Positions 3,188 to 63,535 of a DNA stretch of 64,000 nt are shown here, piece after piece. The stretch is from Mustelus asterias. Its lineage: Eukaryota. The position numbers and the translations under genes were made by a program. Each line of letters begins with the position of its first letter. The stretch's first letter is position 1. Where the stretch lies: the NCBI RefSeq assembly GCF_964213995.1, contig NC_135813.1, forward strand, positions 21,700,001-21,764,000, given 5' to 3'. The notes beneath the pieces are model-generated. The model was not told the origin of the DNA, searched no databases, and saw only the letters and a list, made by a program, of their open reading frames with translations.

Positions 3188-3313
3188 GGCCGGACGTTTA
3201 CCGCCTCGCTCGCCCCAGAATCGGGGCGGGTGAGGCACGCAGAATGGCATTTTCCATTGGCCTTGGGTGGGATCTTACGAGTCCTGGGTGGTCGAAGTTG
3301 TAAAATACCAGCC
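3188..3313. mobile_element. 126-bp MITE, PIF/Harbinger-like
   Basis: TIRs ggccggacgtttac / gtaaaataccagcc; reverse-complement homologue of 52029-52154; flanks cat/cag. Confidence 0.75.
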
Positions 3314-6030: not shown

Positions 6031-6032
6031 TG

Positions 6033-6373
6033 GGAGGCGATGACCTATTGGTATTATCGCAAGACTATTAATCCAGAAACTCAACTAATGTTCTGGGGAC
6101 CTGGGTTCGAATTCCACCAGGGCAGATGGCATTTGAATTCTATTAAAGAAAAATCTGAAATTAAGAATCTACTGCTGACCAGGAAACCATTGTCAATGGT
6201 CAGAAAAACCCTTCACTAATGTCCTTTGAGGAAAGAAATTTGCTGGTCTGGCCTACATGTGACTCCAGAGCCACAGCAATGTGGTTGACTCTCAATTGCC
6301 CTCCGAGGGCAACCAGAGATGGGCAATAAATGCTGGCCAGCCAGCGATGCTCATGTCCCATAAATAAAAAAAA
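6033..6373 (+). mobile_element. tRNA-headed short retroelement (internal-deletion derivative of the LINE at 39594-42483)
   Basis: B box ggttcgaattcc; body matches the LINE 5' region; tail gggcaataaatgctggccagcc...A-rich matches the LINE 3' end. Confidence 0.75.
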
Positions 6374-6634
6374 GTTAAGGAAGGTGGAGTTGGGACCAGG
6401 ACCAGACCAGCCATATCTTATCAAACGGCTGAGCAGACTTCTCAGAAGGCCTATGTCCATGACTTTGAGCAAAGCTGTGGCCCCAGCAGGCATCTTGTTA
6501 ACAATTTTCTCCATGGTCCTAGCTTGCTTTACAGCCTCCTCCATAAAGTTTTAATTGTTAAGGTTAATGGTGAACTGCAGTTTTTGGGCAGTGAAGATAT
6601 AACTATCACTTCACCAAAAGACTACAGTTGGCCA

Positions 6635-13999: not shown

Positions 14000-15493
14000 T
14001 TTCACCTATGGATATTCCTTTGATGTTATTCTTGTACTTACTAGACCAAGTCATAGTTTACAAGTTGTGGCCTGACCAGACCACTGTGGCCTCAGATTTA
14101 TTTTACATTAATACACCATAATGTTTGTGCTATCACTCACAGATCTTTTTCAATCTGTCTCTACAATTCAATTCATATTAATACAAATCAATTCAACACC
14201 ATTCATTAGCAAGGAAGTAGGAGCTTGGAACTTCTTTGTCACTGGGATTGCGACCATCTGTTCAATTACTTCTATTCCTTCCCATCTTTCCATTGCTCAC
14301 CACCCCATAAACTCCCATCTGGCCTAGCAAAGAACCCACACTCTCTTCAGCAACTACTCCATACCCTCTGAACTCATGTTGTCTATGAGGCCCAACTCCT
14401 AGTTAGTTCTCGCCTCTTCCCCATCTACATGTTGTCCCTCTGCACATCTGCAGATTCTGAATCACCATCCACATGTATGCTGATGACAGCTAACTCCATC
14501 TCTCCTCTACTTCCTCTCAACTTCTCCACCATCCCTGCATCTTTAGATCATTTGCCCGATTGCCAATCTTGGTACTGCAATTTCTTTCAGTTAAATATTG
14601 GGAAAACTGAAACCATGGTTTTCAGCCGACCACAAACTTGATGTTCTTCCTAATTCCATACCCGAGTCAGGCTAAACCTGACAGAACACACCCCATCCAC
14701 CATCTTAAACTTTCACTCCTTCCATCACCGGTGCACCATGATACACCAATGCGTACCATCTGCAAGACGCACTGTAGCAATTTGCCAAGCCTTCTTTGAC
14801 AACATCTTCCAAAGCAGCAACTTTCATTTCCTCTGCATCAGAAAGATCACCCACTCCATCTCTGTAGCACTGCCCACATCCATACCTGGAACATTGTCTA
14901 CCACGGCTCCTACCTCAGCTCTTGTGCTGCTGAAACCTCATCCATTCACTTGTCATCTTCAAACTCAACTATCCCTATGCCATTCTGGCCTGCCTCCGTC
15001 ATAAGCATAAACGCATCCAAAACTCCGCTGTTTGTATCCTATCCTGCATTATCCCTTCACCCTGTTCTGACCTACATAGCTCTTGTCCATTCAACATGTT
15101 AAATTTAAAATTCTCCTGTTTAGTGTTAATATGTATTAATGATGTTGATACCATGTTTAAGACATTTCATCCCCTTGCCCTTCCTCATCCCAAATCTCTT
15201 ATAGCTTAACACACCCTCCAAAGAATCCTTTAACTCTGACCTTGTATCTCACATTCCTTCAGTCATCATTAATGGCTATCTACTAAGTCCGAAGCATTGG
15301 CATTTCTTCCTTATACTCTTCTGCCTCCCCACCCTTATGACCCTTGTTAAAACCGAGTAATTTCAGGAAACTTTTGACCACCCCTCCTTGTATCTCATAC
15401 TTTAACTCAATGTCTATTCTGACTACGGCGCTGTGCAAAACTTTCAGACAGTTATTTATGGTGAAATGGTTATATAATTGCAAATCGTTGTTG
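14000..15493 (+). mobile_element. old L2 LINE remnant
   Basis: C/T-rich; cacatgtatgctgatgac (HMYADD), FFQLNIGKTE; L2-type tail ttatataattgcaaatcgttgttg. Confidence 0.75.
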
Positions 15494-21200: not shown

Positions 21201-23624
21201 TTTCCAAATACAGTTGTATTAAACTATTCTCAAATTATTATAAACACTTACATGCATATTCATGTTTATTTAAAATTTAATTTTGTGGGAGACCAACACA
21301 GGGAGGAGCGATCAGTGTCTTTCTAACATAGTAGGAAATGCACAGTGGATTACTGTTATGTAAGAAGTGTACTAAAAATATTAGCAGTAGTTATGCAATG
21401 AGATTCTGTTAGCGACTGGTCCTGTGCAAAGCTCTCACATCTCTATTACGTGCTTGGTTTTAAAAAAAAGACTTCAAACATATTTTGACAGTCAATTTTT
21501 AAACAGAATTGGAAAGATAACTGCACAGAAATTTCTGACCAGGCTTTGTATTCTCTGAGGGAAATAATTTAACTATAATTTGTGAATGAATTACCACTGA
21601 GCTACATTGACATGAGAATGCTGCACTTAATGTACTGTAGCAACTGAGCTGATTAACATTTCAGAGTTCACTGGGATAAAAGATTTTTGGTTTCCCAGCT
21701 GCAACTACATCAGTGTCCCTTGTTTATCCTGTTTATAAAATTACATCAATAACAGGATTTTCAACAAATAAATATATGTTTATTTAAAAGTTAATGCTAA
21801 TAGTTACATTTCATGAAATTAGTTTGCTAAAAGTTTTGTGATCATTTTAAAATATATACAAATATTATATAAATACAGCATTACTACGTTATCCTACTCA
21901 GAGCTGTGAACCAATTGTTGTGAAATGCACATTTCCTTTTTCAAAAGATTTGTTGTATGAAGAGCTTTGAAGTTTGACTGAAATGTGATTATTTTTATTT
22001 CCATTACCTTTTTTGATATACAGGAAAGTTTGAAATGTGGAGGAGTCCCTGCTTACATGTGTAGTCATTGTCTTTTCAACCACCCTCTGTTACCAACATG
22101 TATTAAGTGAATGATTTTGCAAAAAGATTAACTAAAATTATTAGCAAATATTCTGATAAATCCCTTAATCTGTTTGAAGCAGCAGTTTAAGTTTGTCTCA
22201 AGGATATTTGAAAACATTCTATACTAAGCTGTCCCTTCTCTACTAATGATGCACCTAGAGTAATTACTGATCATGTTCATATTATCAAACATGAGTTCAA
22301 AATTACCTGGTTGAAGATTATGTCCAATGTATTGCTGGTTCTGGCTCTTCTTAATTCTTTCAAAAATACCTAAAATAAATAGTAACTCTTATTTTTTTTA
22401 AATATAAAAGATAATGCATTAGGGATGAGAACAACAACAGCTGTTGGAATGTTGCAGTGGCAACATTCATGTTTCTGTGCTGATGATCTAACTCGATGCT
22501 TGTAGTTCTGGGGGACAGAGATGGGAGACAAAGGCAGACAGAAGAAGAGAGGCCACTGAGACAGAATCAGAAGTGAAATGAAAACAGCATCCAGATACTT
22601 CAGGAATAAAGCCAAAAGATAGAGCAGGACAAAGCTCAGGATATTACAGAGCCAGCAAAATAGAAAAATGTAAATAAAGACACAATAGATGAACTGAAAG
22701 AAAGTCAAAAATAAAGAGAAATAAAACAAAGCGAAGAAAATAAAAGTAATGGAAAAAATAGATAAGGAATTAAAAGGCAGAAGCAACAAAAGAACACAAT
22801 AAACGTTTTTTTAAAACAGAGCGATAGCTAAATATATTGTAAGCAAAGGGAGAAATGAAAGAGTGAATCTCAGGAAGAAAGCAGATTCATGAGAAGAAAG
22901 AAACACGAGAGGGAAGAAATTAAAAAGTATCATCACAGAAAGGTATAAATTACTTGACAGCCACAGACTTGTTTATTAAATATTTCAAGAATTTTAAAAT
23001 GTATTTGCCTTATTACCCCCTCATCAATCATAGGACCATTAACACAGCATTTAATGAATAATAGATAACAACCTTACAGTTCTGTTGACTTTAAAAAACT
23101 TGTCATTTTCATGAACTAGCATTGAAAGTTGAAAATCTGTGAAATTCTTTACAAAAAAGTGTTTGCTAGGTATCAAGATAAATGCCAAGCACAACTAAGA
23201 GTATAAAACAAAAATTATAATCTTATACCTAAATTGTAATATCTACTGACTGTGACCAATCCTGGGGATTAGCTGCACATTCAGGATCAGTGGTATTCTT
23301 TTAGCAATATCAAAAGACATCATTTGTACCGTGTTGTAAATGTCATTACAAATCATTGGTGATGTCAAAAACAAGACTCAGAGGTCAAACCACCCTCAAA
23401 GAACTAACCAGTTCTTCTTTAAGAAAACTCCAAGGAAAGAAAGCCATTTTAAAACTTAATTTAAATGTTCACATGTGAAATCATCAGAATAATTAGTTTA
23501 GAAACTAGTCTTGTTCTTCCCATCCACTATTCTCCATCAATCCACAGCCCTTACTTCAATATGAAATTGGTCCTCCTCGTGTTTTTTTTAAATTTCCAAA
23601 TCATTCTAGAATTCAGATTTTAAA

Positions 23625-23955
23625 ATAATCAGGAAATAAAAACGGTATCAGTAAAAGTGGCTATGAAACTATCAGATTGTCATAAAAATCCAACCAGTTT
23701 ACATGTGCGTTAGGGAAGAAAATTGCTGTCCTTATGGAGTCTGGATCATGTGAGGTTTGATCCATATCAATCTCGTTGACTCCTAGTCGCCTTCTAAACG
23801 GCAAGACATTCAGCAGTATCAAAATAGAAGACCTATTCCAAATTTGTCAGAGCAACTAGTGACAGGCAATGTTCAAAATGAAAGGCATATTCCCACTTTC
23901 TGAGAGCAACTAGTGACAGGCAATTAATGTTGGCCTTGCCACATCCCAAGAACCA
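23625..23955 (+). mobile_element. old copy of the tRNA-headed short retroelement
   Basis: tagggaagaaaattgctgtcctta and ttgactcct match the LINE 5' region; gcaactagtgacaggcaattaatgttggccttgcc matches the LINE tail. Confidence 0.6.
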
Positions 23956-24139
23956 ACCCCTGGTGTGATTTTCTTTTTATGCTGTGCTTGAGTGTGGGCC
24001 ATTGGAGAATAAAATGCATGTCTACTTACTCAACTGTAGCAAGGAATAAATGTCAGGAACAATGTCACAGTGACCACCTGAGCGCAAGGTACAAGAAATA
24101 AATACTATTTAAAGCCACTACACTTCATTTCTAAGAATT

Positions 24140-28274: not shown

Positions 28275-28287
28275 GTAAGATATACAA

Positions 28288-28440
28288 TCATAGAATCCCT
28301 ACAATGCAGACGGAGACCATTTGGCCCATCGAGTCTGCACCGACCACAATCCCACCCGGGCCCTATCCCCTTAACCCCATCTATTTACTCTGCGAATCCC
28401 CCTAATACTAAGGGGCAATTTAGCATGGACAATTAACCTC
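28288..28440 (-). mobile_element. HE1-like SINE 3' half
   Basis: tcatagaatccctac...gagtctgcaccgaccacaatcccaccc...ggggcaatttagcatgg, shared with 44896-45214. Confidence 0.85.
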
Positions 28441-31400
28441 AGGTGTGCAATTTTTAAAAATGTTGTTTGAAGTGATTTAATTTAAATATCTGAATGAGCT
28501 TCTTCACCAGTGAATAATGTTTGGGTGCGTATTTGAAAGCAGGTTTAAGTTAAGGTGACAGTTATATACAGGGACTTGCCAGCGACGCTCACATCACATG
28601 AAAGACTTTTTTTGGCAATAATATATTGAAAGGTGTATCAAATAGAGGGTAGATTTTTTAAAACTTAAAACGCCTTTAGTGAGATAAGATTTGATCGCAT
28701 TCACATTAGCTGAAATAATATGACATAAATATATTCAAATACAGATGATATCAACCAGATTTCTCCTCAATACTCACTAGTCGGAGGCTCGATTTTCCCG
28801 CGGATTGGTCGATTTTAATGAATTGGAGATCTGAAAGAATTTATTCCCATGTACATTAATGGATTGGTGTATTCTATTAGCGAGGCTCTTTGCGAATATT
28901 TACAATGGAACCTTCTGGCCTGATCTAGTAGGCCTTTCGGAGAGTATGAATGGAAATGATGAGTAAGGTGTCGCAGATGTTCAATGTAGGCGTCCAGAGA
29001 TAGACTTCAGTATTTTTATATTGTGTTGTAAAATGGAAATTTTATATGATCCAGAAATGCACACCGTGGCTGGAGTTGTCCAACCGAGCTGAGTTAGGAT
29101 CAATGTTTGATTCACTTGTATACTTTCCAGGAAGTTCCTCTTCAAAATGTATTATTAATTGTTTGCATGCAGTTTGGGGGGTGCGGAGTGTTAATTGTCT
29201 GTTCACTACGAGAGAAAATGTGAGACTGTGTGGATGGACAGTGAGATGAACAAATTGGCAATAGGCTCCAGGTCATCAGAAAAAGACTGAATGTAGACAT
29301 TTTCTGACATGTATTTTAAGAATTCCACGATTGAAATTCAAATGCAAATGAAGCAGCTCCTAGAAAAAACAACTTGGAGATTTCTTAAAATTAAACTTAA
29401 ATGGGGCAATTAAAATAACACCATGTTCAGAGAAAATTGAATTTTGTCCTTTGTTATAATAAATCACTCAACAGCAAAAGTATTGAACTTGTTATATCAC
29501 ATTTCATTTTAAAAACAAGTGGTTTAATGTTTATGACACTAGAATATAGAAAAGTCAAGAATCCCTACTTGTGAAAAAATATGCATATTATATAGTGTTG
29601 AATCACATACTTGACTATTTTAAAAATAATTAAGATTTGACTAGCTATGGAGAATTCAGGGAAGTATTTTTGAGTAGTGTTGATATATTTGTAGTTTTAC
29701 TGAAGTGATATGCCAGTGATAATGTGAATTGCTGAAACTGAATTTACATTGGCACCAATTAAAGTTTTAAAACAGGCCATTTTTCTTGTTAGGTTAGGTT
29801 GTGACTGGTTTGATCTATTTTCCCTGTGGTTTTTGAAGGTCACTATCTATATCATCTCTGATGACCCCAAGCATGTAAAGCATACAGACTGCTCTAAATA
29901 AACTCACTTTGGAAAACATACTGCAAGACTTTACTATACTCTGGACATATTTGACTTACCAATTGGTGGCCCACTACGTTTTATTTGAATTTTCTGTGCT
30001 TCCTGTAACCTCCGAGGACAAATTTCAGAGACATTTGTGCTCATTACAGTAGCTCCATCTGCATTCAAACCAGGACAGGAAACTGAGAAACAACTCAAAC
30101 CTGTGATGGCAAGTTGATGGAAATGCTTTTCTAGAAGGTTGTGATGCAATTAGTCAGCGGCATTAGTTCATCTCAAAGTGCAATTTTACTTTTGTGAAAA
30201 ACTATCCTCTATGTAAGAATGTTAATATTCCACGTGGCTGGTGACTGTGTCTGAAACACAGGTACATAGGTGATATTTGGAACCATTTTATAGCAGTGAA
30301 GTTACATGTCAGATGTTACTCTTAAGATATTGAAGGGAGTATGAAGTCTTTAGCTATGAATAAGGCAGGGTGTTTAACAATCTACCTGCTCAAGATTGTA
30401 TGGATAATATAGCTGTGATTTCCTTAAATTTTTATTTGGTAGATACTGCTCCCCTTTGATATTCTACATTTCTTTGTAGAAAAACATAGCAATGTATCTA
30501 GATCGCTTAATTTCTCTACTTTGGGTTCAATTTTAGCACTGTGTCATTGCTTGGATCACAAAAGCAACACACATCAATTTTAGCAATGATTAAAGAAAAG
30601 CAGCTAACTTGTTAGTGTGAGTGAGTCGAGAATTTCAAGTAATTCTAGATGTATTTAATTTGTCATGCAAAGTGGCCACAGTAAGAGTCAACAAACTGAG
30701 GGACACAGATTGTTACTAATGTTTTAATGAAATTAACAGCAAGGAGAGGATTCATGCTCCTTGAAATGACACTAAGATTTTGCATAAATAATTGCAGAAA
30801 GTTCAAATCTAGGGTATATTATAATTAAATTGAGAAAATGCAGCCCTGGTTAAACTTGTAAAGAGCTGGCGTGATGTTGCAGGCAGTGGAGAACTTTCCC
30901 CTAGTGCAGAAAATCATGGAATTGATGCAATGTGGGGGTGCAGTTGAAATGATCCACTGAGAAACTCATTTTGCCTTATTGAATTGGACTTTGTATCAAT
31001 CCTTTATCAAGTTGCATCAATAGTGGCTGTTGATCTGCCTGAACTGACAGTATTCCTTCTTGCAGCCAGGGGGACTGAGTATGGTGATGGAAGGCCTCTG
31101 AATAGGAGAAAGTGAAAGATGATAGGGCTATAAAAAACAGTATTGAAAAGCAATTCTGATCATGTATTGTAAATGCAGACTCGCATTTAAATTTGCACAC
31201 TTTATTGTAAATTACAGTCTCACTTCCCCCTTTTACAAAGACAAAGTGTTATTAAATGATACAGAAGTACAAAACATTGTCAGGCACGCTTAGAAGGACA
31301 TTTAATACATTCGTAACATAAACTGGGATATTTCAGTTATTTCTGGCCCTGGGAAGTACTGAACAGAGTCCTTGGAATTAGTGAAAGGAAAACATCATTC

Positions 31401-37485: not shown

Positions 37486-37705
37486 TTTTTAATTCTTTAA
37501 TTGGATGTGGGCAACACTGGGTAGGCTAGCATTGGTGGTTCATCTCTAACTGTCCTTGAAAAGATGATGGTAAGCTGCTGTCTTGAGCTGGTGCATTCCA
37601 TGTGGTGTGGTTAGATGCAAGTGCTGTCAGGAAGGGAGTTCCAGGATTTTGTCCCAGCAGCAGTGAAGGAATGATATAATTTCAAGTCCGCATGGTGTGT
37701 GACTT

Positions 37706-38400
37706 GGGGCCCGATTTTACCATTTTCATTCTAAGTGCTGAATCTGGGCGCAATTCAAATCCCACTTGGAAATCTGCTTTCAGGCGCCCCCATTAGCACT
37801 TAGCCTGAAAACAAAATCGCGTGTCTTAATGGTGCTGTGGGCGGGGCTTAGTGTGCCCGAAACAATCGGAGCTCTGAACTATGCATGCACAGTTAGAAAA
37901 AAAATTGAAAATCGTGCCACTGTCACATCGCTCCCGGGCTGCAAAAAGCAGATAAAGCGGCCCGAGAGCGATAGCCCCCACAGACATCATCCCCACCCTT
38001 ACAACATAACTGTCCCCCTTACCCACGCACACCCTCCGCTACCCAGACCGATTGCAACACCCTGCCCCCTTTCTCCCCCACCAATTGCCCACAGAATGGC
38101 AGCAGACCCTCCTGCCCCCCGCACCACCCCCACCACCCCCCGAGATCCATCTGGCCTCCCCCACCCCCGAGAATGATCAGGCTCCCCCACCCCACCCCCA
38201 GAGAAAGTTCGGGCCTCCCTCCCCCACCAGACAACGATCGGGCCCTCCCTCCTCCCCACCAGAGAATGATTGGGCCTCTTCCCCCACCCCCGCACCAGAA
38301 ATACATCTGACCCGCCTCCTCCTCCGCCACCCCTCCCCCCAACCAGAAAATGATCGGGCCTCCCTTCTTCCCGCCCCCCCCCCCCACCTCATCAGAGAAT
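37706..38400. mobile_element. non-autonomous Harbinger-like element with C-rich tandem array (38143-38390)
   Basis: TIR-like ggggcccgattttacc; repeated ccagagaatgatcgggcctccc units. Confidence 0.5.
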
Positions 38401-39593: not shown

Positions 39594-42483
39594 GTAATTG
39601 TCACTGAACTAGTAATCCAGAGACCCAGGTAAATGCTTTGGGGACCCATGTTCCTGGAACCCCGGGACACATAGGAAACATCAAAAATAGAAGCAGGAGT
39701 AGGCCATTCAGCCCTTCGAGTCTGCTCCGCCATTCACTTTGATCATGGCTGATCATTAAATTCAATATCCTGATCCCCCTTCCCCCCATATCCCTTGATC
39801 CCTTTAGCCCCAAGAGCTATATCTAATTTCTTCTTGAAATCACATAATGTTTTGGCCTCAACTATTTTGTGTGACAGTGAATTCCACAGATTCACGACTC
39901 TCTGGGTGAAGAAATTTCTCCTCACCTCAGTTATAAAAGGTTTACCCCTTATCCTCAAACTACGACCCCTAGTTCTGGGCTCCCCCACAATCGGGAACAT
40001 TCTTTCTGAATCTACCCTGTCTAACCTTGTTAGAATTTTATAAATTTCTATTAGGATTGTATTCATGAGAGGGGATCTAACACATTTTATTCACTAATGC
40101 CCTTTAGGGACGGAAATTTGCTGTCCTTACCTGGTCTGGCCTACATGTGACTCACAGCAATGTAGTTGACTCAAATGTCTTCTGCAATGGCCAAACAAGC
40201 CACTCAGTTATATCAAAATGGCTAGAAAGTCGACAAAGAGTAAAACCAGACAGTCCACCCAGCATCGACTTTGCCATTGTTGTTTCCAGTGCCTAACCCA
40301 GCCCTGCCGACCCTGCATAGTTCTCCATACTAACATCTGGGGCTTGTGCCAAATTTGGGAGAGCTACCTCACAGACTAGTCAAGCAACAGCCTGACATAG
40401 TCACACTCACAGAGTCATACCTTACAGATAATGTCCCAGATACCACCATCACCATCCCTGGGTATGTCCTGTCCCACTGGCAAGATAGACCCAGCAGAGG
40501 TGATAGCACAGTGGCATTCAGTCAGGAATGAGTTACCTTGGGAGTCCTCAACATTGATCCCAGACCCCATCATGTTTCATGGCATCAGGTCAACCTTGGG
40601 CAAATTTACTTCCTGCCAATGAGCACATATCACTCCCCCTCTCAACTGATGAATCCGTATCCCTCCATGTTGAACGCTACTTGGCAGAAGCACTGACGGT
40701 GGCCAGGGAGTAGACTGTATTCTGGGTGAGGGACTTCAATGTTCATCACCACGAGTGGTTTGGTAGCACCACTACTAACTGAGATGGTTGAGTCCTGAAG
40801 GACATTGCTGCTAAAGGGGTCTGCAGCAGGTGGTGAGGGAACCAATGAGGGACAAACATACTTGACCTCATCCTCACTAATCTGCCTGTTGTAGATGCTT
40901 CTGTCCATGATAGTATCGGTAGGAGTGACCACCGCACAGTCCTTGTACAGACTAAATCTCATCTTCACATTGAAGATATCCTGCATCATGTCCTGTGGCA
41001 CTACTCCCGTACTAAATGGGATAAATTTCAAACCAATCTCTCAATTCAAAACTCGGCATCCCTGAGGTGCTGGGAACCATCAGCAGCAGCAGAATTGTAC
41101 TCACCACAATCTGTAACCTTGTGGCTTGGCATATCCCCCACTCTACCAAGCCAGGGGATCGACCTTAGTTCAATGAAGAGTGCAGGAGGACATGACAAGA
41201 GCAGCATGAGGCATAACAGGGCAAATCCAACCGAGCTAATTACCACCCCATCAGTCCACTCTTGGTCATTAACATAGTAATAGGAGTCATCAACTGTGCT
41301 CTCAAGTGGCATTTGCTTAACAATAACCTGCTCATTGACTCTCAGTTTGGATTCCATCGAGGTCACTCAGCTACTGCCCTTATTACAGGCTTAGTTCAAA
41401 CATGGACAAAAGAGCTAAACTCCAGGGGTGAGCTGAATGTGACTACCCTTGAAATCAAAGCAGCATTTGACTGAGTGTGGCATCAAGGAGCCTGAGCAAA
41501 TTCTACGACACAACTCTGAGGAACTCCTGTGATAATATCCAGGAACTGAGATAATGGGAATTGGGGGAAAACTCTTTGCTAGTTGGAACCATGCCTCGCA
41601 CAAAGGAAAATGGTTGTGGTTGTTGGAAGTCAATCATCTTAGTTCCAGGACACAACCACAGGTGATCCTTGGGTAGTGACCTAGGCCTAATGATTTTTAA
41701 TTGCTTCATCAATGACTTTCCTTCCACAATAAGGTCAGAAATGCAGATGTTCACTGATGATTGCACAATGTTCAGCACTTTCATGACTCCTCAGATACTG
41801 ACTCCTCAGAACTGGGGTTATCATTTGACCAGAAATTGAGCTGGGCCAGCCAAATAAATACTGTGGCTACAAGAACAGAGTAAGAAGTGGCCAGAGGCTA
41901 GGATTCCTGTGGCGAGTAACTCACCTCCTGACTCCTCAAAAACTTGTCCACCATCTACAAGTCAGGAGTGTGGTGGAATACTCTCCACTTCCCTGGATGA
42001 GTATAGCTCTAACAACACTCAAGAAGCTTGACAGCACTCAGGACAAAGCAGTCTGCTTGATTGGCACTCCATCCACAAACATTCACTCCCTCCATCCCTG
42101 ATGCACAGTCGCTGCAGTATGGTATGTACCATTTACAAGATGCACTACAGGAGCTCATCAAAGCTCCTTTGATAGCAACTTCCAAACCCAGGAGTGCTAC
42201 CATCTAGAAAAAGGACAGCAGATGCTTGGGAACACCACCACCTGGAAGTTCCCCTGCAAGCCACATACCCTCTTGATTTGGAAATATATCGCTGTTTCTT
42301 CACCGTCGCTGGGCCAAAATCTTGGAACACCTTCCCTAACAGCACTGTGGGTGCACCTACACCTCATGAACTGCAGCGGTTCAGGAAGGCAGCTCATCAC
42401 CACCGTCTCGAGGGCAATTAGGGAAGGGCAATAAATGTTGGCTTAGCCAGTGAAGTCCACATCCCTTAAACGAATTAAAAAAT
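39594..42483 (+). mobile_element. near full-length CR1-group LINE (APE + RT) with SINE-like 5' head, internally deleted and degenerate
   Basis: APE: LGELPHRLVKQQPDIVTLTESYL, DFNVHH, LDLILTN, SDH; RT: EIKAAFD.VWHQG, FNCFINDFP, FTDD; tail gggcaataaatg..A-rich. Confidence 0.85.
39670..40050 (-). mobile_element. CR1 3' fragment inserted in the 5' region of the LINE
   Basis: ORF IEIYKILTRLDRVDSERMFP..RNFFTQRVVNLWNSL; tail tttcctatg. Confidence 0.9.
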
Positions 42484-44895
42484 AATTATATTAAATATTA
42501 GGAAAATGCTGCGGATAGTGAATAATGCCACAAAGTGGGCTCTAGGAGATAATGGTGGCCATATTTCTCCCTTTGCTTTTTAAACATAACACCCTATTCA
42601 AGGAACAGCTACGTCACCACCAGAAGCACAAGTTGGAAAACAGAGAAGGTCTCCAAGTTTTGTCAATCTACATCATTTGTTTCACAATCTATAATCTAAA
42701 AATGATTTGTTAGAAGACAAATTTCCGAGCAATAGGTTGTGAGAATCTTCAAAATTTCACCTGATCTTGAAAGATCTATGCCACAGTTCCAGATGTTTGG
42801 TAAGTTTATATTCTGGTCTCCTCCTCCATACAATCAGCCAGTACTGAAAAACAAAATGAAAAAGTACCATGCAGCAATGATATTTGCAGAATAGTATATG
42901 CAGCAGCCACAGTTATATTGCATCTATGCTGCAATTATTTTTCAATGGCATCTACAGCTGTCTCCAATCCCAGGCCACATGTGATCAGTTTTGGCACTGG
43001 TCCTCCTGTCCTTAACATTTCCGAGGCTCCGATAAGATTCCAGCCGAACCGTTGAATCCTCCAATGAGCAGCAATCATTGTATTGCAGCTGTGAGAAAGA
43101 ATCTCCCAGAAAGAGAGTCCACATTCTATAGATAAATGAAGGGAAGACTTTTTTACACATCACAATGTCCTAAGTAGGGCGGAGATAACTCATACTTTTC
43201 TGAGGTTCTCTCCAAACAGAGAAGATCCCAGCCACAGCAGGCAGATTCCAGCCTTCCTAAGGCCACAATCCCAAATATCCGAGAGCCTCCGAGAGGATGT
43301 CATGTACCAGTGAAACAGGTCATGGATGATGTTCATCCCACTGTGATCTGGTTGAAATCAGATACGTGTTGATTTGTTTCTTCATATTTGTATGATACAG
43401 TGGGCAGAGCAAGGATAACAGAACAGATGTGCTCTCTAATCAAGCTACTCACAGCATATTTTCATGACCAGTAACCCTCCCCCATGCAACTCTGGACTGT
43501 AGCCATTCAGAGCTATGTTGAGGCATATCTGTGCCTTTCTAGTTGGAACGGACATCCATGTCCCTTGTGTCTGAAATGACCTCTTTACAGGTCTACCAAG
43601 CAAAATATTACTCGATGATGCTCTCAAATCTGAAGATATGTAAGAGAAATACGTTAGAGCTTTCCTCAAGTCTGATTAACATGGTTTACTTTAGTTATTT
43701 TGTGTAGAATATTCATTAAAATGTTTAAATAGGTGCATAATGAAAATTATTCAGGCAAACAGTTATGTGAATAAGTAGTTACATATGTCTTATTTCCCTG
43801 TAGAGTAAGATTTTATATACCTGTATTACATATATATAATGTACACTCACTGTCATCTTATGTTTGCCTAATCCATGTCCTCTTACTGATTCTGTAAACC
43901 CAGTGGACTGAGCTCTGCAGGATGCCATTAAACACAATCCCTGTGTCCACATTAGGATTGCCATTTGAGGAATATTAAGGATTAGCACCAAAACTGCACA
44001 TGGTATTTCAAATGTGGCCTCATGCAGTATCTATACGAGGTTCTACCAGGCCAAGTTGTGAAACTCTGGTGCCTAGTTCAATTGATCAGCCTATTTGCCT
44101 ATGAATTAATTCTATCCTTGCTCAATTCGAACAATAGCCCCTGGGTAGTCATCAGGAGTGTCATCGACCTTGCACAGCACCAAGGCCACTTGTGACAACC
44201 TGTAACTTGTTGGCGAGGATCTCCAAACTGGAGATTGAACTTTGGATGTTCGTGGTTTAGATGACTCAGTCCCATGACAGAAAATCATCTTTACCCACTA
44301 AACCATTGGGAGATCTGGTTCAATAATTAATTTCGATTGAAATCTTATGGGCTCATCATGCAAGACACTTGATTAACCTTATTGCTGTTGAATAGACTGA
44401 GACCCAGACCTGACAGAGCAATATTCCTTCAAATAGCAGTAAGAAATATCAGAGGCATCAGAATGTGGTTATCAAATGTTATGCCAGTCACATGATCTGC
44501 TCTCGACCGTGAATGCACAATACAAACTCTTTTCATTACATTAACAAGGAGCAGCATAATTTAAAGATCCTTAGCTTGTTCATGTCAATTTATTTTGTGT
44601 TGGCCAACTAATGTTGTTCCTTATGCATTGTTCCATATTCTAATGTTTTTAGAATTGGTAAGTGGATATGTTTGTGTAACTCATTAGAAGTCATCAAAAG
44701 TAATTGAAATTGGAAAGAGTTTTCAAATCCAAAATTGGATTAGGTGATTTCTATTTGTTGCAATTAGGAAAAGGACAAACATTCATTTGCTTTTTTTTGT
44801 GAATTCATGTTAATTCAATGTCTAAGAATCGTACTCCTCAGCTCCTGGAATTATTGAACATTAAATCAAATGATACAATCATTAGATTCAATAAT

Positions 44896-45214
44896 CTTAG
44901 AATCCCTACGGTACAGAAGGAGGCCCTTCAGCCCATCGAGTCTGTACCGACCACAATCCCACCCAGGCCTTATTCCTGTAACCCCACACATTTATCCTGC
45001 TAATCTCTCTGACACTAGTGTCAATTTAGCATGGACAATCAATCTAACCCACACATCTTTGGACTGTGGGAGGAAACCAGAGCACCCTGAGGAAACCCAC
45101 GCAGACACAGGGAGAAAGTGCAAACTCCACAGAGACAGTGAGCCGAGGCCAGAATTGAACCTGGGACCCTGGTGCTGTGAAGCAGCAGTGCTAACCACTG
45201 TGCCATCGCGCCGT
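44896..45214 (-). mobile_element. full-length HE1-like V-SINE
   Basis: Minus-strand head ggcacagtggttagcactgctgc, B box ggttcaattc, V domain and CR1-type tail. Confidence 0.9.
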
Positions 45215-53054: not shown

Positions 53055-53860
53055 AACCAGCCATCTAAATACTGTGGCTACAAGAGCACGGGCTGGGAAT
53101 TCTGCAGTGAGTATCTCACCTCCTGACTCCCCAAAACCTGTCCACCATCTACAAGGTATAAGTCAGGAGGGTGATGGAATACACTCCATTTGCCTGGACA
53201 ATGGCAGTTCCAACAACAAGAAGCTCGGTACCATCCATGACAAAGCAACCCGCTTTATTGGCATCTCTTCCTGCACCTTTAGCATTAATTTCCTCCATCA
53301 CTGACACACAATGGCAGCAGCGTGTACTATCTACAAGATGCACTGTAGCAACTCATCAAGGTCTCTTTAACAACCCTTGCTGCGTAAAAATCATAGAATC
53401 ATAGAAACCCTACAGTGCAGAAGGAGGCCATTCGGCCCATCGAGTCTGCACCGACCACAATCCCACCCAGGCCCTACCCCCACATTTTTACCCGCTAATC
53501 CCTCTAACCTATGCATCCCAGGACTCTAAGGGGCAATTTTTTTTTAACCTGGCCAATCAACCTAACCCGCACATCTTTGGACAACCCTTCTCGGTTGGGG
53601 GCAGGCTCCCCTTGTGTCTGTGAGGCGGAGTCTGCTGTATCTTTTGGGGCGTTGGTCCCCCATGTGTGTGTGTGTGTGGGGGTTGTTGCTGAGTTGGCTA
53701 TTGGATACTGGGGCATCCTCGGAACTCTCTTCCAAACAGTGCCATGTGGGTGTATCTACACCACGCGGACTGCAGCAGGGAGGTGGCTCACCACCACCAC
53801 CTTATAAAGGATGGGCAATAAATGCTGCCCTAGCCAACAACACCAAAATCAGCGTGAATA
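53055..53860 (+). mobile_element. 3' fragment of the SINE-headed LINE family, interrupted by a SINE (53389-53582, minus) and templated filler
   Basis: aatactgtggctacaagagc..actcaccaccacc..gggcaataaatgctg match 41858-42440 and 62360-62930. Confidence 0.85.
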
Positions 53861-55013: not shown

Positions 55014-55283
55014 TCATAGAATCTGCAGTGTGGAAGGAGGCCATTTAGCCCACTAAATCTGCACCGACAACAATCCCACCCAGGCCGTATCCCCGTAACC
55101 CCACATATTTACCTTCCTAATCCCCCTGACACCAAGGGGCAATTTAGCATGGCCAATCAACCTAATCCGCACATCTTTGGAGTGTGGGAGGAAACCAGAG
55201 CACCCGGAGGAAACCCACACAGTCACCCGAGGCCGGGATTGAACCCGGGTCACTGGCGCTGTGAGGCAGCAGTGCTAACTACT
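55014..55283 (-). mobile_element. HE1-like V-SINE with internal deletion
   Basis: Same tail and head segments as 44896-45214; the head appears to continue at ~55400 after a short insert. Confidence 0.85.
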
Positions 55284-56699
55284 GATTTGATTTATTATTG
55301 TCCCAGGTATTAGTATAGAGTGAAAAGTATTTTTTTCTTGCGCGCTATACAGACAAAGCATACCGTTCATAGAGAAGGAAACGAGACAGTGCAGAATGTA
55401 GTGCCACCATGTGTCTTTTTCCTGTTGGTAAAAAAATTAGTGCAGTTATCAAAATGTTTTCTGCCCAGTGTGTATCTTGTCACATTCGGATAGTATTTTT
55501 ATCTGCATGATTCAATGCCTTTTAAAAATTCTTCCCTATATTTTTTGACAGCCTGTGGTAGTATGGCCCCATTTTAAAATATATTCTTTGCAGTCAATTT
55601 TTGATAGTGCCTTTCTCAACCCTGTGACCTGTGTTTAAAGACAATCAATCCTGGTCTCATTCTCTATTGACAAGTTAGCAATCAAGCTTTAGGAGCACTC
55701 GAGAGCAGTCCAGTTGAACAAATGGTCACACAAAGTAATTTGTTTTAAAAATAGGAAATAAATGCAGTTTAACATAGCATGTAGTCGAGGGTGGGGACAG
55801 AATGAACTCACTCACGGATTTAGGCATAATTCCTATCTAGTGAACCCCCTATGCTGAGATTAAAAGAATGTTTACTTCCTGCCATTCTACTTAAACATTT
55901 TCAAGGATGTTTGATAGGCACATAAATTCTGTACCTTGTGATCTTTATTCCACACATAAAGGTGAGGCAGATTGGAATCTTAGGTTATCCTCACGAATGA
56001 AGCAGCTACTGTAATTTTTAAAAATTGTGTTTTTTTTTCATTATAGTCTTATAGATCACTAAGCTTCAGAGAAAGGAATGGATCTTATATTGGGCTTTAC
56101 CTTGCTGTAAAAATAATGGTTGTATTAACAGCACACACTGTTATGAGTTTGCAAGTCAGAGTTACAAATCTTCAGAATTCACAGTTGATTCACGTCACTC
56201 CGTTGCTTGCCCAGTCTCCCCATTGCCTTTAAGAACTTGCTTATTAATTGTCCATTAAATTTGCTGCAGGAAGTTAAATCTGGCATCCGCATAAAGACAT
56301 TTTTAATAATGAGGTATTACCAATCAATCTCTTCAGCCCAGAAAGGGAACAATTTAAATTCTGGAGTCTCATTCCTTCAGTTTAAAAATTGTTCTCGGAG
56401 ATTTTTCAAAAATTATACATTTTTAAATTTTTCGTACTTTTTCTAAAAAAATTTTCTCTCTCCTAGTCCATTCTTTTTCTTCTCTTTATTTCTCTTTTCT
56501 TTGCCCAATTCAGGAATTCAGATAAAATCCAGCAATTTAATGTTCACAGATTAATTGGGTTACGATAATAAATTTTGATCTGGACCAAGGGCTTTATTTT
56601 TTTTGAGTTTGATTAGTTACTGTAATCCATCCCCTTTTTATTTTAAATGTATTTATCTCATTATTCATCTCATCATTCAATATCATATCTATCTGTTCT

Positions 56700-59411: not shown

Positions 59412-59735
59412 TGTGGTGGCACGGTGGCATAATGGTTAGCACTGCTGCCTCACAGCACCAGGGACCCGGGTTTGATTCCCGGCTTGGGTCACTGCCTGTG
59501 TGGAGTTTGCACGTTCTCCCCATGTCTGCATGGGTTTCCTCTGGGTGCTCCGGCTTCCTCCCACTCTCCAAAGATATGCAACTCAGGTGGATTGGCCGTG
59601 CTGAATTGTACTTAGTGTAAGGGGAACTAGCTCGGGTAAATACATGGGGTTATGGGGATAGGGTCTGGGTGGGATTGTGGTCGGTGTAGACTTGATGGAC
59701 TAAATGGCCTCCTTCTGCACTGTACGATTCTATGA
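59412..59735 (+). mobile_element. full-length HE1-like V-SINE
   Basis: ggcacggtggcataatggttagcactgctgcctcacagc, V domain, tail gattctatga. Confidence 0.9.
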
Positions 59736-59736
59736 T

Positions 59737-61554: not shown

Positions 61555-61935
61555 TTTATTCTATTCTTCCATTGGAGGTGGGCATGTTGCTGGCATGGTC
61601 CATCCCGAATCACAGTGCTGTTAGGGAGGGGATTCCAGGGTCCCACAAAAGTGAAGGAACGGTGATGTAGGCTGGACTTTTCTGACCACTTCCCACCTGC
61701 GGGATCTTCCGGTCCTGCTGACAGTGCACGCCTGCAGCACGTTCCCCGGCAGTGGGGTTGGTGCAAACAAAGGGAAACTCCGTTGACAGCAGCGGGGCCT
61801 GAAGATCCTGCCGCCGGCTGGTGGGCTGCCTCCACTGCGGCGAAACATGCCGTGGAAAATCCGGCTATCGTTCCAAGTCCGGATGGTGTGTGGTTTAGAG
61901 GGGATCTCGCAGGTGTTGGTATGACTTCATGGGGG
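61555..61935 (-). mobile_element. LINE tail fragment (SINE-headed family) containing a 197-bp MITE (61670-61866)
   Basis: gtgaaggaacggtgatgta | ggctggacttttc...ggaaaatccggct | atcgttccaagtc: host sequence continues across the MITE. Confidence 0.75.
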
Positions 61936-62204
61936 TGGATATATAGTACAAAATATTCTAACGCTGCACCCCTTGGGTGAAGGGTAATAATTAGCACTGA
62001 GGTGGGAAACCTAATTTATCAAATGCTGTTTCCCGGACAAAAGGTCAAACTTATTTAAAATGAAGACTTAGATTTCAGCATTAATGTTTAAAAAAGAAAC
62101 TGATATTGCACAGGAAAGCATTCTCGTGGGCAAAGTAGTCTATGGGAGACAGTTGTTACACTCTGAAAACTTAGATACTTTAAGCTGGATTTACCTGCAC
62201 AGTA

Positions 62205-62972
62205 ACATTCGTGCCACACAAATGCCAGGCAATGACCATCACCAATAAGAGACATTCTAATCATCGCCCTTTGACATTCAATAGTGTTACCATCCCTGAA
62301 TCCCCCACTGTCAACATTCTTAGGCTTACCATTGACCAGAAACTCAACTGGACTCGCCAGATAAACACAGTGGCTACAAGAACAGGTCAGAGGCTAGAAA
62401 TAATGTGGCGAGTAACTCACCTCCTGACTCCCTAAAGCCTGTCCTCCATCTACAAGGCACAAGTCAGGAGTGTAATGGAATACTCTCCATTTGCCTGGAT
62501 CGATGCGGCTCCAACAACACTCAATAAACTCAACACCATCCAGAACAAAGTAGCCTGCTTGATTGGCACCACATCCACTGTCAACACCACCAATGCTCAG
62601 TAGCAGCAGTGTGTACCATCTATAAGATGCACTGCAGCCAATCACCAAAGATCCTTAGACAGTACTTTCCAAACCCACAACCACTTCCATCTAGAAGGAC
62701 AAGGGCAGCAGATAAATGGGAACATCACCACCTGCAAGTTCCTTTCTAAGCCACTCACCATCCTGACCTGAAAATATATCGCCATTCCTTCGCAGTCGCT
62801 GGGTCAAAATCCTGGAATTCTCTCCCTAACGGCATTTTGGGTCAACCCACAGCACGTGGACTGCAGCGATTCAAGAAGGCAGCTCACCACCACCTTCTCA
62901 AGGGCAACTAGGGATGGGCAATAAATGCTGGCCAGCCAGCGATGCCCAAGTCCCATGAATGAATTTTTAAAA
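62205..62972 (+). mobile_element. 5'-truncated copy of the SINE-headed LINE family (ORF2 C-terminus and tail)
   Basis: PHKCQAMTI..NILRLTIDQKLNWT.., VRSVMEYSP; tail gggcaataaatgctggccagccagcgatgccc. Confidence 0.88.
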
Positions 62973-63197: not shown

Positions 63198-63535
63198 TTT
63201 TAAAAGTTAGGATGTCATTGGCAAGACCAGCATTTATTGCCCATCCCTAACTGCCCTTGAACTGAATGGCTTGCTAGGCCATTTCAGTGGACATTTAAGA
63301 GTGAACCACATTGCTTGGGTCTGGAGTACGCCAGACCAGGAAGGGATGGCAGATTTCAGCTGGGTTTTTGCAACAATTGATAGTTTCATAGTCACCACCA
63401 CAAAGACCAACTTTCAATTCCAGCTTTATGAATTGAATTCAAATACCACCAGCAGAATTTGAACCCCGTGTCCCTAGAGCATTGGGTTGGGCCTCTAGAT
63501 TTCTAGATCAATGATGTTACCATGATGCCACCTCA
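63198..63535 (-). mobile_element. tRNA-headed short retroelement, third copy
   Basis: Minus strand ggggttcaaattc B box, ctggtctggc..aatgtggtt body, caagggcagttagggatgggcaataaatgctgg tail. Confidence 0.75.

Follow-up and report, generated by a model that had tools for sequence, protein, structure and literature searches.

The element at positions 39594-42483 of the window, by which we mean the whole 64,000-nt stretch of Mustelus asterias DNA analysed here, is, as judged by alignment with its sister copies, a dead and decayed copy of an elasmobranch Zenon LINE of the ORF1-less CR1 group, and the tRNA-like head with A and B boxes that opens this family is, by the same comparisons, the true 5' end of the LINE. 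The full-length 3.3-kb RNA of elasmobranch Zenon is probably transcribed by RNA polymerase III (Pol III), with the short elements that share its ends arising as its deletions. A wider reading, held with less assurance though still slightly favoured, is that Zenon would be an autonomous coding retrotransposon whose RNA is made by Pol III from a tRNA-Thr-derived promoter, whose codons and phenylalanine content have been reshaped so that no terminator is left, and whose uncapped RNA is translated in a non-standard manner; the LINE would then also be a SINE, giving SINEs by plain deletion. The initial annotation of this DNA had put forward a LINE with a Pol III-type leader, of which the A/B-box head is upheld, while its transcription by Pol III is argued here from sequence features.

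The window copy is old, with 74-80% identity to the family majority, a 3,286-nt sequence first derived from 11 of the 20 loci that had been extended and then improved with 60 loci (depth 12-58); positions in it are given below as family nt. There are 9077 first-look candidates for the Zenon 5' part in the 3.68-Gb genome, of which 40 were scored. The tRNA-derived head, of the old-subfamily type, lies at 39594-39669 on the plus strand; its 5' ~20 nt and A box are gone and its B box is decayed, but 39597-39653 match family nt 23-78 at 88% and an anticodon-like loop, CTAGTAA, is retained at 39609-39615. As had been noted initially, a CR1 insert splits this head from the body: it is a later insertion foreign to the Zenon element, namely the 3' end of a canonical CR1 LINE on the minus strand (39670-40050; 85% identical to the CR1 L391 of the same genome), in whose region the ORF list places a minus-strand ORF at 39743-40090. 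About 100 nt of head and body are absent at the insert, and the body restarts at 40079 (family nt 176). This 5' body, delimited by its match to the family majority, extends over 40079-40328 on the plus strand (family nt 176 to ~440) and is common to the short elements up to nt 317 (~40209), beyond which lies the leader; in the family the leader holds a conserved out-of-frame ATG, which is decayed in the window copy. The endonuclease motif begins at 40329, 250 nt past the restart of the body and in agreement with the interval of ~250 nt claimed at the outset. It opens a single endonuclease and reverse transcriptase (RT) ORF at 40329-42421 (plus strand), traced by tblastn and by blastn of the family majority, in which stops and frameshifts have accumulated and two segments have been deleted, one of family nt 1337-1900 (at 41216) and one of family nt 2447-2631 (at ~41805). 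The 3' tail at 42408-42483 (plus strand, family nt 3221 to the end) is common to the short elements and has AATAAA at 42430-42435, ~40 nt upstream of the A tail in the Zenon element, followed by a short A tail. Within the ORF, ~50 nt at 41503-41552 correspond to family nt 2280-2329 in reverse and look like a small inverted duplication, with an extra stretch near 41500-41545 adjoining.

The window also holds further 5'-truncated Zenon copies or fragments on the plus strand (62201-62964, 53056-53372, 53715-53844 and 14689-14813) and on the minus strand (37492-37707 and 61611-61920), of which 62201-62964 is younger (90%) and is in tail-to-tail contact with the short element at 63198. A separate abundant short repeat, unrelated to Zenon by blast, has several window copies (1142-1344, 44893-45212, 55014-55284, 59418-59736, 28282-28445 and 53393-53582).

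Comparison of coding regions indicates that the element belongs to Zenon and not to canonical CR1. The majority sequence of the copies contains a single frame of 979 codons with an APE endonuclease and RT, and sister copies match Pfam PF03372, PF14529 and PF00078. Approximately 440 nt lie upstream of the endonuclease motif, where the sole ORF is out of frame and 36 codons long; no ORF1, including the esterase ORF1 of canonical CR1, was found in the other copies or in the majority, and there is no room for one, as the initial description of a LINE lacking ORF1 had stated. Of 40 copies the end was parsed in 29, and these have A-rich ends, indicating poly-A. In a quick RT tree of 56 rows, with no labelled Zenon included, the element falls together with 18 single-ORF relatives in a 19-row clade (SH-aLRT 99), apart from the CR1s of its own genome, to which its protein identity is ~26-29%. 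The absence of ORF1 is given as a trait of all Zenons by Stuart et al. 2026, who describe ORF1-less, poly-A Zenon elements in elasmobranchs (PMC13343379); over the first 400 nt, compared by eye, the 5' ends of those published elements agree with the family majority. Among 150 RT matches in the genome no intact copy was found, the longest open frame being 544 codons; for two other species the supplement of PMC13343379 gives intact copies, 3/612 in HypSab and 1/1419 in RhiTyp. A scan of viral contigs gave no relative, and a metagenome scan gave mostly distant RTs and one full-length Zenon-like locus. A shark database protein annotated as anoctamin-7-like (P0027) includes a stretch 66% identical to the Zenon ORF over a quarter of the query, and is either a gene model including Zenon sequence or an exonised piece. 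The locus L390:998-4963 carries a canonical CR1 ORF2 with ~350 unrelated-looking codons in frame upstream (1322 codons from stop to stop), probably a fusion through nested insertion.

Evidence that the head belongs to the LINE comes from two samples of copies and from published consensuses. Amongst 29 other copies picked by their 5' body the head is present in 24, and the remaining five are truncated with unrelated flanks. A second sample was picked by RT and comprises the top 40 of 150 RT matches, minus four already included or duplicated; of its copies (n=40), 32 are 5'-truncated inside the ORF and eight reach below nt 300. The head is found in seven of these eight near-full-length copies, and four begin at nt 1-4. 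No alternative common upstream sequence was seen among the 29 copies or among the RT-picked copies (eight of 40 reaching the 5' part), and the check suggested by the initial annotation, attachment of the head in other full-length copies, had a positive outcome. All seven elasmobranch Zenon consensuses in the supplement of PMC13343379 also open with the head, while the two hagfish and one coelacanth Zenon consensuses are without it and show T runs (first 400 nt, by eye). Both A and B boxes are intact in the majorities of the old and young subfamilies. The best tRNA alignment of the head is with tRNA-Thr(AGT) (z 6.0-6.4, 10 own-genome tRNA types compared), with a 19-nt insert in the variable region, and the Thr anticodon loop is retained in the older subfamily head. 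The assignment to tRNA-Thr is tentative, since ten tRNA types were compared and neither ARAGORN nor Rfam makes a call: ARAGORN at default settings called no tRNA in 16 loci, and Rfam gave nothing beyond a T-arm match on six loci and one head. The output of ARAGORN at a relaxed score was noise and was set aside.

When aligned with the LINE, the short elements prove to be the Zenon head and tail with the middle deleted. They are ~356-383 nt long, non-coding and multi-copy (6650 and 5372 first-look candidates, which are not copy numbers), have the tail of a partner LINE, and in their family majority show both A and B boxes, all of these being structural traits of SINE2. The element at 6032-6375 (plus strand) joins family nt 1-290 to 3221-end with a young head and tail, and carries an A box at 6041-6051 and a B box at 6104-6114; 6032-6306 match family nt 2-291 at 80% and 6306-6368 match the tail at 90%, and its family as a whole is 97% identical to the LINE at both ends. 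The element at 63198-63530 (minus strand), of the old type, joins nt 1-317 to 3221-end and has a B box at 63465-63455, with 63530-63260 matching nt 11-315 and 63260-63227 matching the tail. In a very old element at 23623-23960 (plus strand), the body up to ~nt 322 meets the tail at ~nt 3190, and a piece of the tail is present twice; 23623-23822 match nt 117-322 at 68% and 23893-23935 match the tail, but the element has no head and no B box. The initial annotation had described all three as homologous to the head and body of the LINE, with a shared tail and a B box in two of them. The tail and the two B boxes are confirmed, as is the homology at 6033 and 63198, whereas the element at 23625 is homologous in its body only.

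The three head-to-tail joins on which repeated, separate deletion had been argued (gccctc to cgagggc, cagtt to caagggc, and one after gtatcaaa) are all present as strings. On detailed examination, the junctions at 6033 and 63198 have one restart point in common, nt 3221 of the tail, and the former element equals the latter minus 27 nt, so that the two are not independent cuts. Junction variants 298/3223 and 290/3232 are likewise nested inside 317/3221, and most short elements therefore go back to a single primary deletion. Of 60 short elements surveyed in loci chosen without regard to the junction, 53 are nested within 317/3221 (several read by eye, from overlapping alignments), and the other seven have different junctions with more of the LINE kept on both sides, two of them having come from a search requiring sequence beyond nt 317. 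Independent deletions recur but are minor, and the idea of a LINE repeatedly spawning internally deleted elements stands to that extent. The junction at 23625 had no second copy among 40 scored matches. Target-site duplications (TSDs) spanning head to tail, which had been proposed as a check, were not above chance in these old copies (≥5 nt in one of 14 parsed copies, out of 30, vs 2.7% of shuffled pairs). Many of the short elements L053-L079 have TA, or a comparable A/T-rich end, in the 5' flank before the insertion, which suggests a weak target preference. As to mechanism, any internal deletion keeping head and tail would yield a ready-made SINE; the 317/3221 deletion may have founded the main family, several sub-lineages of which then lost a further 20-40 nt, and the rarer independent deletions would have arisen separately.

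The ends of LINE and SINE also share a history. At diagnostic positions of head and tail, old SINEs match old LINEs and young SINEs match young LINEs across one junction, which points to exchange between LINE and SINE RNAs, and this tracking of the ends is most likely due to template switching within the shared regions. Two short elements, at L173:318-337 and L174:382-386, run straight into LINE sequence that begins near family nt 2100 in each case, and these are possible template-switch chimeras of SINE and LINE RNA. With regard to origin only, the order of events could have been the reverse of that favoured here: following Kojima's model, a headless Zenon would have given a bipartite deletion form that gained the tRNA head, and the LINE would later have taken its head from the SINE by template switching in the shared 5' region. 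We consider this possible but doubtful. Such a route is documented for the SINEs of RTE and Vingi (PMC5786205), Zenon is reported to give SIDEs in Lepidoptera (PMC6740152), and the exchange or co-derivation of LINE and SINE ends over time and the two possible chimeras would fit it. However, neither a headless full-length LINE nor a headless bipartite family was found among the copies examined, and the rarer short elements keep LINE sequence past nt 317 at several points, a varied retention for which a headed LINE is needed as donor.

If Pol III is to read the whole element, its terminators should be missing from the sense strand, and they are missing. Nowhere in the 3,286-nt majority do four or more T fall within 5 nt, against 13.4 such windows expected (zero in none of 1000 shuffles), and these T-rich pentamers are exactly the set of T4, T3VT, TVT3 and T2VT2 tested as canonical and non-canonical Pol III terminators by Orioli et al. 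(PMC3141230). Counted as runs, it has no T4 and five TTT, vs 52 AAA, 46 CCC and 37 GGG, and all five TTT fit the definition of the inactive 'isolated T3' given in that study (PMC3141230). Within the ORF, TTT occurs three times vs 12.2 under codon-usage-preserving shuffles (P ~1e-4), with runs of A, C and G as expected; for T4 alone, with protein and codon usage fixed, the difference is not significant (0 vs 2.1, P=0.09). At synonymous sites T is found at 0 of 43 positions where it would form a terminator window vs 205 of 707 elsewhere (P=1.2e-6), and the avoidance is uniform along the whole element. In dead copies mutation to T is equally frequent at terminator-forming and other sites, which argues that the avoidance is not a mutation bias. 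Ten single Zenon copies have 0-7 T-rich pentamers each (insertions left out) and the window copy has eight vs 18.6 expected; with such low counts in single copies, the zero in the majority is not an averaging artefact. The majority of the older subfamily also has no T4, but with a difference of only 4% between them the old and young majorities do not count as separate tests. The 11 shared changes to T in their comparison, none of which forms a terminator, are not significant. Between the element end and the A tail, T4-T6 occurs in nine of 29 copies (L113, L118, L119, L126, L129, L134, L135, L144 and L148), in many cases as part of a T-run/A-run palindrome; in a few copies the same change is seen at an internal A6 run, and the T stretch is either a terminator remnant or decay of the A tail.

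Other retrotransposons provide the comparison. A CR1 control from the same genome has 25 TTT and nine T4 in 2.1 kb, and uses the phenylalanine codons TTT/TTC 21/6 times vs 2/16 in Zenon. Twenty endonuclease matches of the genome gave 19 other frames with 5.3-13.3 T-rich pentamers per kb, one of which (L407) is without a match to the RT query, while the twentieth is a Zenon copy with 2.2 per kb. In metagenome controls, where 62 of 80 loci had a long RT frame, the observed to expected ratio was never below 0.75. Among these loci is L260, of the Zenon-like relatives with DNA the nearest, which shows 6.7 T4 per kb, lacks a B box and has a Met upstream of its endonuclease; it is the one close Zenon-like DNA among controls that leave aside other T-poor vertebrate LINE clades. 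The phenylalanine content of Zenon, 1.8%, is the lowest when compared with 17 relatives at 2.8-6.7%.

In the mechanism that these observations suggest, TFIIIC would bind the A and B boxes of the head, Pol III would read through the terminator-free body, and the RT would copy the resulting RNA from its 3' tail by target-primed reverse transcription, which is established for LINEs. Alternatively, Zenon could be an ordinary Pol II LINE that captured the head of a SINE, whether as a passenger or to serve as its Pol II promoter, its T motifs being avoided for some other reason such as U-rich decay signals, cryptic splice acceptors, Pol II pausing at T tracts or RT stalling. We regard this as unlikely, although LINEs are stated to be Pol II transcripts (PMC10886601, PMC5786205), the AATAAA ~40 nt upstream of the A tail would suit it, and a capped RNA would make translation easier. 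Under equal Pol II constraints, however, three CR1 families of the same genome and 62 other RT ORFs keep their T motifs, and what is avoided in Zenon matches the Pol III terminator code, even to the tolerance of isolated TTT (PMC3141230). The intact A and B boxes of both subfamily majorities and a leader full of ATGs also stand against Pol II transcription.

The step of the Pol III explanation that we offer as a guess, and its weakest, is translation. Pol III RNA is uncapped, the leader has nine ATGs upstream of nt 349, and there is no in-frame AUG upstream of the endonuclease motif, the first in-frame Met lying well inside the endonuclease, so that translation is not explained under Pol III transcription. 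Of 56 copies, 54 retain the ATG at nt 349, as do six of the seven published elasmobranch consensuses (by eye), the seventh being without it. This ATG opens the 36-codon frame, which overlaps the start of the endonuclease; the two frames are offset from each other as ORF1 and ORF2 are in the CR1 L391. From this ATG to the endonuclease, net indels amount in most cases to 0 or a multiple of 3, and a -1 shift would join the two frames; no clear slippery site was seen for such a shift, and a coding-frame comparison over nt 349-435 had only five shared non-CpG changes. Translation of the uncapped RNA may begin at this AUG and enter the endonuclease frame through a -1 shift, or may follow some other cap-independent path. 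Re-initiation by stop-start at the end of the short ORF was rejected, as it skips the first endonuclease motif and the stop is changed in 10 of 56 copies. The missing AUG was likewise rejected as evidence for Pol III, as canonical CR1 ORF2s of the same genome lack one too.

The difficulty of uncapped translation would vanish in a split system, in which Pol III makes the template RNA and the protein comes in trans from separate capped RNAs, produced by host read-through or from an internal Pol II start near the AUG at nt 349. It would also account for the great excess of short elements, which number 18 against one LINE among the elements in loci picked by the head motif, and for a head depth tens of times that of the adjoining ORF in four runs (a rough contig depth, silent on start site, strand and level). 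Yet no internal promoter was identified, a frameshift or a non-AUG start would still be needed, and the ORF shows purifying selection between subfamilies, 29 of the 51 changes that are shared being synonymous, which fits action in cis better; we rate such a division of labour as marginally less probable still than Pol II transcription. The idea that in the window a LINE merely happened to insert into a SINE can be dismissed: the CR1 insert and deletion do part head from body in this copy, but the same fusion recurs in 24/29 and 7/8 other copies and in the seven published consensuses.

Returning to the Pol III transcription that we favour, it is helpful to set the element beside known systems. 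The elasmobranch Zenons CarCar_, RhiTyp_, ScyCan_ and HypSab_Zenon-1 and SquAca_Zenon-1 to -3 are the same family, of 2.9-3.3 kb with a single ORF, no ORF1 and poly-A (PMC13343379). The word 'tRNA' occurs 0 times in the text and supplement of that report, and no account was found there of the head, of a strand free of terminators or of short elements derived from the LINE (PMC13343379); the family is thus known, and its head architecture, present in those published consensus sequences, seems to have passed without remark. Persaeus, a SIDE of lepidopteran Zenon, is likewise non-autonomous and made from Zenon 5' and 3' ends, but has no tRNA homology or Pol III promoter, whereas here the parent LINE itself has one (PMC6740152). 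The short elements described here share with SIDEs their derivation from two ends, and differ from them in having a small-RNA head with a Pol III promoter. Bov-tA, AfroSINE and CoeSINE4, which are bipartite RTE/Vingi SINEs, likewise combine a tRNA head, a LINE 5' part and a 3' tail, but in these it is a deleted LINE that gained the head, and the autonomous LINE is regarded as a Pol II element (PMC5786205). Only RTE, Ingi, Vingi and R2 are listed there as making bipartite SINEs (Kojima 2018, PMC5786205). The TRIMp3 elements Cassandra, Helenus and Ajax also have a small-RNA-derived Pol III promoter outside the SINE class, but they are non-coding LTR elements of 0.3-1.3 kb, whereas Zenon is 3.3 kb long and codes for RT (PMC10886601). 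The initial contrast with the usual tail-only pairing of SINE and LINE therefore does not hold as to novelty, as head-plus-tail derivation has precedents (PMC5786205, PMC6740152).

The unusual point is that the autonomous LINE itself carries a tRNA head. R2, too, is a LINE with a single ORF, and its RNA, as proposed here for Zenon, is something other than an ordinary capped Pol II mRNA. It differs in being transcribed together with rRNA, from which a ribozyme frees it, in the type of its endonuclease and in its site specificity. A literature search of sources other than Repbase, Dfam, subscription journals and the Zenodo consensuses of PMC13343379 gave no description of a tRNA-headed or Pol III-transcribed Zenon, and outside Repbase and Dfam it turned up no LINE that codes for protein and combines a Pol III head with a body free of terminators.

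According to the working rule, LINEs are Pol II transcripts and Pol III makes short non-coding RNAs only, and its processivity is held to limit the RNAs of Pol III-promoter retrotransposons to ~1.3 kb or less (PMC10886601). If the reading favoured here is true, a 3.3-kb coding element under selection against Pol III terminators, persisting across sharks and rays, would break this rule. Zenon would then provide a natural example of a Pol III transcript that is long and has to be translated, and a one-step route from LINE to SINE.
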